Assembly: GCA_030393635.1 (NCBI GenBank)
Contig: GCA_030393635.1_4352.1
Source: a phage
Strand: one strand, 5' to 3'
Length of the DNA: 44,340 nucleotides
A model generated the notes under the pieces. It was not told the origin of the DNA. It saw only the letters and a list, made by a program, of their open reading frames with translations, and searched no databases. Both the position numbers and the translations under genes were made by a program. Below, in pieces: positions 40,922 to 43,241 of the stretch (its first letter is position 1; every line of letters starts with the position of its first letter).

Positions 40922-41215
40922 TTATTTATGGCGCCAGATGTATTGGCGTCTCTGCGGTTTCGTCGGAATATCTTCATATCCCAGCGATTTCCAGTAATTA
41001 AATAACCGATTAGCGATAGCGGCGCGTTCCTTTGTTTTAAACTCACCGAGGTTCACGGCCTTCCCGTTCTGGAATCCGCAGGCGCGGACAGCTTTGCGTC
41101 TGGCCTGAATCTCGGGGAACAGTGCGTTACCCCGACGCTTGTATATCTGTGTTTTAGCTCTCGGTGACAGCGGCGCAAGGCCGCTTCGTTTCAGGATGTC
41201 AGTTGCGAGGCTCAT
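40922..41215 (-). CDS. Possible DNA-binding protein
   Basis: ORF 40922..41260 with ATG at 41215 overlapping the upstream stop; basic segment GKAVNLGEFKTKERAAIANRLF. Confidence 0.35.
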   Translation of the reverse strand: MSLATDILKRSGLAPLSPRAKTQIYKRRGNALFPEIQARRKAVRACGFQNGKAVNLGEFKTKERAAIANRLFNYWKSLGYEDIPTKPQRRQYIWRHK

Positions 41216-41403
41216 ATACCGAGAATCCCGCGGGCCATTTCTTCGGTGGCTTTCGAACACGGCTCATACATTACCTGTTCAGCGAAGTTACGCAGCTTAT
41301 GCTCAAGCGCCGCGTAATCATCGTATGTCACATAGTCGCCGTAGTCCCATTTAGCCATCTCAGGCTGGCCCCATCTATCCGATAGCTCATATCTCTGTAC
41401 CAT
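41212..41403 (-). CDS. Small protein, paralog A of a tandem pair
   Basis: Starts MVQRY; shares the DYVTYDDYAALEHKL-type motif with the upstream gene. Confidence 0.4.
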   Translation of the reverse strand: MVQRYELSDRWGQPEMAKWDYGDYVTYDDYAALEHKLRNFAEQVMYEPCSKATEEMARGILGI

Positions 41404-41579
41404 CACTGCGCCCCTCCCACATGTGTAACTGACCCACAGTTCGCGCACTCGACGTAATCCGGGAACTGGTCTTTGTATTTCTGTAACTCAGCTTCTAGCT
41501 TCACGTAGTCTTCGTATTTGACGTATCTACCGTCGGCATCCGGTACACAAAAACCGTTGTTAGAATATCTCTGCGCCAT
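41403..41579 (-). CDS. Small protein, paralog B (C-terminal CxxC)
   Basis: ATG at 41579 after AGGAG; starts MAQRY; RYVKYEDYVKLEAELQKY motif; C-terminal CANCG. Confidence 0.45.
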   Translation of the reverse strand: MAQRYSNNGFCVPDADGRYVKYEDYVKLEAELQKYKDQFPDYVECANCGSVTHVGGAQ

Positions 41580-41581
41580 AA

Positions 41582-41785
41582 TCACTTCTCCTGTTTACCA
41601 AGTCGCTTAGGTGAGCAGATAGCGCGTACCTCTGAATCGTTGGGCTTGTCGACCTGAAACAGGAAGTGCGCGTTCTCTGCGGCGCGTGCGGCTGACTGGC
41701 ACGCCTCCATCGAGTAAAACGTTTCTGATGCCGCTAGTTGCATCTGGCCTGCGGACAGTACCCAGATAAAGAGGATGCTGGTCAT
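41582..41785 (-). CDS. Small secreted/membrane protein
   Basis: ORF 41582..41806 with ATG at 41785 after GGAGG; N-terminal hydrophobic signal-like segment. Confidence 0.4.
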   Translation of the reverse strand: MTSILFIWVLSAGQMQLAASETFYSMEACQSAARAAENAHFLFQVDKPNDSEVRAICSPKRLGKQEK

Positions 41786-41973
41786 TGCTTCGCCTCCACA
41801 CCGCATTTACGGCAATACGGAACACCAGGTCTATTGCCAAAAACCGTCTTACATCTCCACTCATGCTCACACTCATTACCCATTCTCTTGCGAAGTTTGG
41901 CGTAAGCCGCATCGAATCCTTCCGTACGGGCATTGTGCTGGAAGGCGCACCGTGTGCAAAAACAGTCTGCCAT
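41782..41973 (-). CDS. Small zinc-ribbon protein
   Basis: ORF 41782..41985 with ATG at 41973; ECEHEW...CRKCG module. Confidence 0.45.
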   Translation of the reverse strand: MADCFCTRCAFQHNARTEGFDAAYAKLRKRMGNECEHEWRCKTVFGNRPGVPYCRKCGVEAKQ

Positions 41974-42656
41974 TATGCTAACCACCGTAAATCATAAGGT
42001 AACGTTTCGCTCCGCGCACCGCAAACGTCACATTCATAAAAGCCAGGCCCGTCACCCATGACGTAACTCCACTCATGCTCACATTCCTGAGTATCGTTTT
42101 TCGGTTTATATTCCTTGTCGTCCCACTCACGTTTACCACATTTAGAGCAAAGCTCACTACCAGGAACGTTGTTCGGATTGCCTTCGCTGAGAAACAACCC
42201 AGGCATAATAATCCAAGAGTGCTCGCATTCCTGAACGTCTTCCTTACGGCAACCGGATTGCTCGGGTCCGTGTTCGCCTACTACGTAGCTCTTCCCTTTA
42301 GGCAGTGGGCCGCCGTGGTTGGTTACACGGTCGAAGTCCTCATTCATTAGTTTTATTGTTTCCTGCAACTCAGCCACCAGCGCCGACGCATCCCGTAACT
42401 GATTCTTAAGTGACAGCACCTCATGGGCCAGGTCTTCGCACTGGTTGTTATTTACCTGTTGCCGTAGGGTGTCTTTCAGCACACGTATTTCGTCGTCCCT
42501 ACCAGCGATATGCTGCTGTAGGTTGTGGATTACCTGCTTGACCTCATCAAGGTCGGATATCTGTACAGACACATTGAAAGATGTGACATCTTTCTTATTT
42601 ACCTGCTGCCGTAGTTGGTCAATCAGGTACTCGAATACTTCGTTTTTGTTACTCAT
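41973..42656 (-). CDS. Coiled-coil protein with two tandem zinc-ribbon modules
   Basis: 227-aa ORF; repeated LRQQVN segments; two ECEHxW...CxxCG modules. Confidence 0.55.
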   Translation of the reverse strand: MSNKNEVFEYLIDQLRQQVNKKDVTSFNVSVQISDLDEVKQVIHNLQQHIAGRDDEIRVLKDTLRQQVNNNQCEDLAHEVLSLKNQLRDASALVAELQETIKLMNEDFDRVTNHGGPLPKGKSYVVGEHGPEQSGCRKEDVQECEHSWIIMPGLFLSEGNPNNVPGSELCSKCGKREWDDKEYKPKNDTQECEHEWSYVMGDGPGFYECDVCGARSETLPYDLRWLA

Positions 42657-42687
42657 CTTCTGTCTCTCCTCTCGTTCATGTAAATGA

Positions 42688-42716
42688 ATAGTAGCCTATT
42701 CTATCTTAGTGTGCAA
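42688..42716 (-). promoter_or_regulatory. Promoter with embedded palindromic operator (minus strand)
   Basis: Minus strand: TTGCAC, 17-bp spacer, TACTAT; palindrome AATAG-TAGC-CTATT at 42687-42700. Confidence 0.6.
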
Positions 42717-42723
42717 GTAAATT

Positions 42724-42900
42724 TTATTGGTGCTGAGTATTCACGTGATGGCACTTTCTACACTTGTGAACAACCTGGCCGCCCAGGTACGAGATTAACT
42801 GTACCTGCTCGCCGCCGCAGTTGGCGCATTTACGGTAACTTCGAGCCGCAGCATCTCGCTTTGTAACACACTCCATAAGTTTCTCGGTGAACGTTTTCAT
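42724..42900 (-). CDS. Small zinc-ribbon protein (58 aa)
   Basis: ATG at 42900 after GGAG; CANCGG and CRKCHH pairs. Confidence 0.4.
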   Translation of the reverse strand: MKTFTEKLMECVTKRDAAARSYRKCANCGGEQVQLISYLGGQVVHKCRKCHHVNTQHQ

Positions 42901-43037
42901 TGTTGCATCTCCTGCAATAGTAGCTTCGATTGTTGCGTTTGGTGAAATAGAACAAAAATGAGAAAAATGATACGCTGCTGTGCAGCAGCGTAAGTCACTC
43001 AGTCAATTAGTAACCTTTTGACCTGTTACACCACCTG

Positions 43038-43241
43038 TTATACCGGCACTGGCGGCTCTGGTAACGGCATCCAGTGGGTAGCCGGCACCCCATGGCATCT
43101 GTCAAGCTCGCACACGAAGCACTTACCGCCTATAACATCTACAACCTTACATACGCCCGACCTAACGACACCACGAAACGCTGTAAGGACCATCTCGCCT
43201 TCTTCCGGCATCCGCTCACTACACTTAATCCACTCGCTCAT
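43038..43241 (-). CDS. DUF551-like phage protein
   Basis: 67-aa ORF; C-terminal HWMPLPEPP is the DUF551 signature. Confidence 0.55.
   Translation of the reverse strand: MSEWIKCSERMPEEGEMVLTAFRGVVRSGVCKVVDVIGGKCFVCELDRCHGVPATHWMPLPEPPVPV

Follow-up and report, generated by a model that had tools for sequence, protein, structure and literature searches.

Short repeats as recombination joints in a coiled-coil, zinc-ribbon-like accessory protein of Guernseyvirinae phages

A minus-strand gene at 41973..42656 of phage contig GCA_030393635.1_4352.1 (44,340 nucleotides (nt); "the window" below means this whole stretch) encodes a 227-amino-acid (aa) protein with a coiled coil, a conserved linker and two zinc-ribbon-like modules of ligand order C-H-C-C (CHCC). 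Translation and profile matching place it in the family PHROG 6094. Two short motifs that recur in this region, CEHEW and LRQQVN, are recombination joints: the breakpoints lie in short repeats that encode conserved motifs. We tentatively read the product as an accessory protein in which a recombination-shuffled CHCC array, carried on a coiled coil, binds host proteins, most likely as a dimeric adaptor; our confidence in this falls a little short of even. Each CHCC module would bind one zinc ion, the coiled coil would form a dimer, and the mildly acidic array would act as a protein-binding head engaging host proteins, either takeover targets or defence components. Swapping of cassettes would retarget or diversify this head, and individual terminal modules may be redundant or dispensable.

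By sequence, the window is assigned to an E. coli Kagunavirus (Guernseyvirinae), because its first 25 kb share 92% identity with Escherichia phage phiWAO78-1 across 92% of the length, with K1G/K1ind-type phages next. The gene, like all features described below, is on the minus strand. It belongs to a run of small genes which, in annotated relatives, lies between divergent regulator/helicase-primase genes and holin/endolysin genes. This position upstream of the lysis genes is common to Jerseyvirus and Kagunavirus genomes, and the window protein, a direct member of PHROG 6094, occupies the same place. Early expression of the gene is assumed from its position alone.

The match to the family profile (phrog_6094, E=6e-57) spans residues 60-219 and profile positions 11-141 of 142, and the coiled-coil, linker and module regions each match PHROG 6094 on their own. 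Homologues were found by tblastn in 327 phage records, all but a few of them Salmonella or Escherichia Guernseyvirinae, and a large protein database holds 1042. After clustering at 50%, about 70 representatives score below 1e-10 with the full-family profile. The family is thus already catalogued yet undescribed, and the CHCC module is without a curated family. Some records, for example that of Salmonella phage 5sent1, are labelled "putative TolA-binding protein", a name given by the source and seemingly without an experimental basis. The literature on Guernseyvirinae, Kagunavirus or Jerseyvirus together with zinc, early genes, hypervariability or anti-defence yielded no description of the protein, and one transcriptome paper gave no usable per-gene assignment for its gene.

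The modules follow the pattern C-x-H-x-W, a hairpin of 10-23 residues, and C-x-x-C-G. A six-frame scan of the whole 44-kb window with the expression C-x-H-x-[WFY]-x(5-40)-C-x-x-C-G returned exactly three of them, and 0 in 200 shuffled windows. Scan and translation together recover the three sites that a first-pass annotation of the window had reported, two in the 227-aa protein and one in an overlapping open reading frame (ORF) of 63 aa. Module 1 (42135..42227; ECEHSW-x23-CSKCG, CEHSWIIMPGLFLSEGNPNNVPGSELCSKCG) is of a "long" type. Module 2 (42018..42083; ECEHEW-x14-CDVCG, CEHEWSYVMGDGPGFYECDVCG) is terminal and followed by the tail ARSETLPYDLRWLA. Module 3 (41800..41871; ECEHEW-x16-CRKCG, CEHEWRCKTVFGNRPGVPYCRKCG) lies within the 63-aa ORF.

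The same annotation had proposed comparing module copy number across phages, and this comparison bears out that the modules are conserved in relatives while their number varies. In 121 proteins we counted 265 intact modules, 0-4 each (two in 66 proteins, three in 36, one in 15, four in 2 and none in 1), which form about 30 sequence types at 60% identity. When 38 divergent short modules are aligned, the C, H, C and C ligands are the sole invariant positions. Of the 265 modules, 259 have a Trp after the His, 258 a Gly after CxxC, and 219 a Glu before the first Cys. The order within arrays is also regular. The long module, the commonest type (99/265) and by far the best conserved, almost always comes first; the type CxHNWRFVNGKAPAVCxNCG is always internal; and the last position is taken by more than 20 types. 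Among these, the type of module 2 is always terminal (14/14) and occurs in 19 phage records, all of Salmonella phages. Alleles differ from each other by whole modules.

With all four ligand positions in place and two knuckles flanking a hairpin, the modules carry the signature of a zinc ribbon. Their likeness to generic zinc ribbons and knuckles (Rpb12/ABC10-alpha, TFIIS, TFIIB) lies in the knuckles CxH and CxxCG on either side of a putative beta hairpin, and it is accompanied by weak profile and fold matches. They differ from these in the C-H-C-C ligand order, in the Trp two residues past the His, and in the acidic junction D-T-Q-E before the first Cys. A classical C2H2 zinc finger was rejected as a candidate: the order here is CxH...CxxC and not CxxC...HxxxH, and the matches to zf-H2C2_2 (E=0.065-0.68) were below the cut-off.

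Small zinc modules in tandem, carried on a helix that dimerises, often serve to bind nucleic acids. The protein could thus regulate phage or host transcription by binding DNA or RNA, its modules reading nucleic acid as zinc-finger arrays do, or activators of the Ogr/Delta type. In agreement with this, the 63-aa ORF has a basic product (isoelectric point (pI) 9.0), and there are weak local matches in fold to the zinc fingers of Kaiso and the zinc ribbons of TFIIS/RNA polymerase. We nevertheless consider such a regulator quite improbable. The module region of the 227-aa protein has a pI of 4.5 and a net charge of -9, the mean net charge in the family is -7.5, or about -0.03 per residue, and because of these charges we favour protein binding over DNA binding. 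Moreover, the fold matches are insignificant (E above 0.3), and the extreme turnover of alleles would require DNA targets that co-vary with the reading heads.

The first of the two joints lies in the coiled coil. LRQQVN, a repeat that the first-pass annotation had also picked out, does occur there twice, at residues 15-20 and 64-69. It is encoded by 20-nt direct repeats that are 147 nt apart, CTACGGCAGCAGGTAAATAA at 42595..42614 and CTACGGCAACAGGTAAATAA at 42448..42467, which form the upstream and downstream edges of a coiled-coil insert of 49 codons, or seven heptads. This 147-nt segment is present in the window and in the homologue P0003, and is exactly missing from Salmonella Jerseyvirus BPS11Q3 and many other alleles.

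The second joint lies in the modules. A 17-nt direct repeat that encodes CEHEW, TGTGAGCATGAGTGGAG, is found at 42067..42083 and again at 41855..41871. L004, the locus of P0003 on a metagenomic phage contig of 41.7 kb, lacks exactly the window's 212 nt between these copies and otherwise corresponds to it, with near-identical flanks. The frames of the 227-aa and 63-aa ORFs are offset by one nucleotide, and therefore the 212-nt difference yields an in-frame protein. The resulting fusion ends in ...KPKNDTQECEHEWRCKTVFGNRPGVPYCRKCGVEAKQ, with the module of the 63-aa ORF as its terminal module. P0003 and P0062 share this C-terminus, and the residues of module 3 are those of the terminal module in both. 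Escherichia phage BEU33 (L007), whose record is flagged UNVERIFIED_ORG, has a frameshift in the CRKCG module that ends the fused allele, which then reads ...CEHEWRCKTVFWQ before a stop; either this is an error of sequencing, or here too a terminal module has decayed.

Further joins were found at other conserved positions. P0107 is joined at the protein level at GCRK, and in SE-W109, P0175, P0192 and P0194 other N-terminal domains are joined at EQSGCRK. The small proteins P0239 and P0185 have gained one terminal module, at EYKPKNDTQ or KCGKREWDD. In P0122 a DUF551 domain precedes an identical CRKCG cassette, but this is tentative, as the protein is encoded on a single low-coverage, possibly chimeric metagenomic contig. 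GCRK and EQSGCRK belong to the conserved linker (residues 113-142, 42231..42320, ...YVVGEHGPEQSGCRKEDVQE), which thus serves as a joint to alternative N-terminal domains too. Its residues P130-E142 are near-invariant in the alignment, inside YVVGEHGPEQSGCRKEDxQE. Part of this sequence, YVVGEHGPE (residues 122-130), resembles a motif of siphovirus tape-measure proteins (phrog_1538 positions 711-729, E=0.037, and also phrog_30701), a match which is insignificant but recurring. The alleles L011, L016 and L017 (phages Bas71, Bas75 and Bas76), as well as P0065 and P0088, have an extra domain of about 60 aa between coiled coil and modules, reading ...WIEHAGAACPVPDDTVVDIKFRN...LWWSWGLNGGPYEIVAYRV, which is another inserted cassette.

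The 63-aa ORF (41782..41973) consists of a leader, MADCFCTRC...KRMGN, followed by module 3. Counted from its ATG it is 63 aa long; a GTG farther upstream, at 41985, would make it 67 aa. Its start and the stop of the 227-aa gene overlap in TAATG. The leader accompanies the terminal cassette that ends in RWLA: of the 19 phage records with this cassette, all from Salmonella, 16 also have the ORF. On one contig, the MADCFC leader is followed by two modules. Because of this company and this arrangement, the leader and the stop before it behave as an insert that splits an array. In the window, one recombination event at such a repeat has detached what was once the terminal module, which now forms an ORF of its own that is translationally coupled. 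The first-pass annotation had seen in these adjacent genes an expansion of zinc-ribbon modules. The modules are real, conserved and variable in number, but the one in the 63-aa ORF is no independent expansion; it is the array's last cassette, separated from the rest by 212 nt in which a stop and a new start occur.

The ORF also appears to evolve under weak constraint. In comparison with phages phi135 and F12013, its ratio of nonsynonymous to synonymous substitution rates (dN/dS) is about 0.5 (0.66 for the leader and 0.32-0.37 for the module, from small counts), compared with 0.10 for the 67-aa gene downstream. F12013 has lost the first Cys of the ORF, and in SE-W109 an in/out frameshift wrecks the first knuckle; neither has a stop codon. 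The ORF is unannotated in the GenBank records of phi135, F12013 and SE-W109, and forms only two clusters in the large protein database. The simplest reading is that of a displaced terminal cassette under relaxed constraint. Its frame may stay open through translation that runs into the coupled downstream gene, with which it shares an ATGA overlap.

A recent transfer between genera is recorded in the same region. The block 41690..42410 is 99.6% identical (717/720 nt) to BPS11Q3. The closest Kagunavirus relative is 97-100% identical to the window down to approximately 42385 and again from approximately 41750, is unalignable from approximately 42380 to 41790, and reaches only about 70% identity from approximately 41810 to 41750. 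The breakpoint on the left is within the best-conserved helix of the coiled coil. In the relative, the allele is gp65, with two short modules of other kinds and without a 63-aa ORF. This pattern indicates a recent exchange of the cassette block between a Jerseyvirus lineage of Salmonella and the E. coli Kagunavirus backbone of the window. The window allele has the long module and the RWLA terminal cassette together with the 49-aa insert in the coiled coil. This pairing of modules was seen elsewhere, in the sequences examined, only in BPS11Q3-type Salmonella phages, which are without the insert.

The N-terminal region (residues 1-112, 42321..42656) is predicted to be an alpha-helical coiled coil, from its heptads and from an AlphaFold2 (AF2) model. 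AF2 places helices at residues 3-20, 32-69 and 72-111, with a predicted local distance difference test score (pLDDT) of 76-95 at residues 31-110; Pfam coiled-coil matches to the region are all sub-threshold. For the full-length model, the pLDDT is 68 and the predicted template modelling score 0.27. With its long helical region ahead of a Cys-rich zinc motif, the protein recalls the layout of DksA/TraR-like factors, which consist of a coiled-coil hairpin plus a zinc finger and bind the secondary channel of RNA polymerase, and the helices 32-69 and 72-111 are indeed alike in length. Yet the DksA/TraR Pfam family is unmatched even at E up to 1-10, and the ligand order is CHCC, in 0-4 modules. The coiled coil changes length in steps of 49 residues and can be substituted by other N-terminal domains. 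Such a variable, replaceable coiled coil is incompatible with a hairpin matched to the length of the channel, and the chance of a DksA/TraR-like role, already disfavoured, is close to negligible.

The most conserved helix (residues 72-100, 42357..42443; CEDLAHEVxSLKNQLRDASALVAELQETI) consists of near-invariant alignment columns and weakly resembles the C-terminal coiled coil of T7 gp5.9. T7 gp5.9 mimics DNA by means of a parallel coiled coil and blocks RecBCD (PMC9836394) and MukBEF (PMC7617805). Residues 72-100 align with gp5.9 residues 20-48 with 14/29 identities (48%), polar positions included (SLKNQL, VAEL), and in gp5.9 (PDB 8B1R, 9GMB) this segment forms a parallel coiled-coil dimer. In the PDB, the family profile matches gp5.9 best (E=0.02), with an hhalign probability of 82% and a match to phrog_9014 at E=0.004. 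Both proteins are acidic (pI 4.8 for the 227-aa protein) and come from enterobacterial phages. Hence the dimeric acidic coiled coil could fill the DNA-binding site of RecBCD, or of MukBEF, and so shield the linear phage genome. The activity of Old is linked to RecBCD inhibition. Also in favour of this reading, small siphoviruses including Kagunavirus are variably sensitive to Old (PMC11990801).

We consider such a mimic very improbable all the same. The likeness is confined to about 29 residues and is borderline after database correction, and the reciprocal search from gp5.9 to phrog_6094 gave E=0.13. gp5.9 is a protein of 52 aa without zinc modules, and its D4, D11, D15 and N-terminal beta brace, like residues 1-19 as a whole, are without a counterpart here. 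Of its acidic residues that contact RecB, six are aligned (D21, E24, E36, D38, E39 and E45; PMC9836394), and 2/6 of these positions stay acidic (E73, D88). gp5.9 is also far more acidic, with a net charge of -8 over 52 residues compared with -7 over the 112 residues of the coiled-coil region, and sensitivity to Old does not follow the allele type (see below). Neither the matches (BLAST, hhalign, PHROGs), which stop short of full length, nor the published contact residues and beta brace place the protein in the gp5.9 family, and we take the resemblance as that of a shared or convergent dimerisation helix, not as membership. Three other candidates for this part of the protein were dismissed as well. 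A match to N.BspD6I (E=0.012) over helix and linker involves no conserved features; one to the Mu Gam/Sipho_Gp157-TOTE domain (E=0.004), from one homologue and over the same helix, was taken as coiled-coil noise; and one to an Rz-like spanin (phrog_6197, E=0.003) covers the coiled coil only, in a protein that is without a transmembrane segment.

Several observations weigh against a dimeric adaptor with an exchangeable head for host proteins. Searches of Pfam, NCBIfam and PDB sequences with the whole protein, each module and the family profile gave only sub-threshold matches to coiled coils and generic zinc ribbons. AF2 places short strands at each knuckle, but the pLDDT of the C-terminal model is 58.5. 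Foldseek with the module region found nothing in the PDB at E below 0.3, only insignificant generic hairpins, and in BFVD, a collection of predicted viral protein structures, only uncharacterised members of the family. Ligands are also lost in viable, deeply sequenced phages: Bas75 reads CAKFG, and in Bas73/74 the first knuckle is gone. Approximately eight more degenerate first knuckles were counted in the 121 proteins. Since viable phages keep such degenerate modules, terminal modules may be nearly neutral.

Phage phenotypes point in the same direction. Alleles of the 227-aa gene are present in all seven BASEL Kagunaviruses, Bas70-76, and we set the efficiency of plating (EOP) data of these phages (PMC11990801 S1 Data) against the alleles. 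All seven are sensitive to the restriction systems tested, plating at 1e-3 to 1e-6, and their sensitivity to Old ranges from none to complete (PMC11990801). Bas73 and Bas74 share one allele type and Bas71, Bas75 and Bas76 another, and sensitivity to Old showed no correspondence with these types. Because all seven are restriction-sensitive and the outcome with Old is independent of the allele type, the EOP data for Bas70-76 hold no sign of anti-restriction activity, though alleles of the gene are present, and no usable correlation with Old. The suggestion of the first-pass annotation that such clusters are often host-takeover or anti-defence factors thus finds no direct support, either here or in a match to a curated family or solved structure. 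It is plausible from the position in an accessory block and from the hypervariability of the locus.

The main rival explanation gives weight to only part of the protein. According to it, what matters is confined to the coiled coil, the linker and the first long module. Recombination between short repeats would yield the variable terminal modules and the 63-aa ORF as nearly neutral side products, kept open mainly for translation into the coupled downstream gene. The dN/dS of 0.5 in the 63-aa ORF next to 0.1 in the downstream gene, the ligand loss and frameshifts in that ORF without stop codons, the viability of Bas73/74/75 with degenerate modules, the far better conservation of the first long module and the TAATG and ATGA overlaps would all fit. 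However, the four ligands, the Trp and the Gly are kept in the great majority of the roughly 30 divergent terminal types, and the CDVCG terminal module (module 2) has a dN/dS of 0.09 (versus phi135 and F12013; small counts). This high retention and low ratio indicate purifying selection on the fold and the metal site in most lineages. We regard the near-neutral explanation as unlikely.

If terminal modules are instead binding heads, as in the adaptor that we prefer, the array might be a cassette-switching effector. The junction D-T-Q-E-C-x-H-x-W and its DNA would then act as built-in joints at which co-infecting Guernseyvirinae swap, add or drop heads, each suited to another host protein, such as a defence component that varies. 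Such a cassette-switching effector is a speculative and, in our estimate, unlikely extension; if true, it would be a non-structural counterpart of tail-fibre tip swapping, across the boundary between Salmonella and E. coli phages. In T-even phages, Tetart and colleagues reportedly found in 1998 that adhesin segments of the tail fibre are swapped by recombination at conserved His-box/glycine motifs. The likeness is that short motif-coding sequences within a gene serve as joints for exchanging variable segments between phages, the joints in the 227-aa gene being the 17-20-nt repeats that encode CEHEW and LRQQVN. The T-even adhesin differs in being a virion receptor-binding protein under selection for host range; the 227-aa product is non-structural, and selection on its joints is only conjectural.

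Arrays of similar modules also occur without a coiled coil. P0224 (188 aa) and P0226 (140 aa) consist of nothing but 5-6 tandem CxHxW...CxxCG modules. P0193, P0195 and P0211 are large secreted bacterial proteins (329-699 aa, with a signal peptide) with 5-10 tandem repeats of about 24 aa, LGHxWxxATCTxPKTCxRCGATxG, which the family profile matches at E 1e-10 to 1e-6. Taken together, such other tandem HxW and CxxCG arrays have a period of about 24-30 residues and match the family profile at E 1e-10 to 1e-5. The bacterial repeats differ from the phage modules in their order, H...C...CxxC, and their proteins in having signal peptides and no coiled coil. Pfam offers no family that covers them, only a summed C1_1 match in which no single stretch is above threshold. 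Whether they are homologous to the phage modules is uncertain, because the summation of repeats inflates the scores.

The neighbouring genes add to the picture of a variable block of small genes. The first-pass annotation had pointed to further CxxC proteins on both sides. Upstream, a 58-aa protein (42724..42900) is indeed of C4 zinc-ribbon type, with CxxCG-x17-CxxC and four Cys that are all invariant in 13 sequences, but it belongs to an unrelated family, phrog_1474. The 60-aa ORF at 41403..41585, likewise of an unrelated family, has one CxxC only, in ECANCGSxTHVxG; this is kept in two relatives, the N-terminal Cys is not, and the motif would be a half-site at best. As a Lar restriction-alleviation protein (PF14354) this ORF was rejected, with 13.2 bits against a gathering cut-off of 28.6 (E=0.11). 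It is a paralogue of the ORF at 41212..41448; both match phrog_29624 and share M-x-QRY...DG-x-YV-x-YEDY. In phiWAO78-1 the two parts are united in a single 97-aa protein, gp67, a hint of a further split/fusion polymorphism.

Directly downstream of the 63-aa ORF, across the ATGA overlap, the 67-aa gene (41582..41785) is highly conserved (dN/dS as given above) and was found in every relative examined. Its product has a signal-peptide-like N-terminus, MTSILFIWVLSAGQMQLAAS, and two Cys, and may be secreted or periplasmic. Farther upstream in the same block, 43038..43241 encodes a DUF551 protein (PF04448, E=5e-15). A weak promoter-like element, TTGCAC-17 nt-TACTAT, can be read upstream of the 227-aa gene at 42688..42716. 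It lines up with a promoter annotated in phage phi135 but scores under the threshold of a consensus scan, and in other alleles an overlapping upstream ORF takes its place. A terminator-like hairpin with a T-run lies upstream of the 58-aa gene at 42971..42992.

Small Cys-rich accessory proteins are common in phages and mostly unexplained. The theme of mosaic accessory genes is familiar; what is new in detail are the defined joints, the split/fusion event and the cross-genus transfer. With more than 1000 alleles, about 30 module types, exactly defined joints, a documented split/fusion and a recent inter-genus transfer at hand, the PHROG 6094 family is a clean and data-rich case of how such proteins diversify. 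The phages Bas70-76 of the BASEL collection, which are cultured and phenotyped, provide a natural allele series that can be used for finding targets. If the heads bind no targets in host defence or takeover, the family would represent near-neutral modular churn, and an open 63-aa ORF should not be read as a strongly selected gene. If they do bind such targets, the family would offer a library of small binders stabilised by zinc, ready for use.

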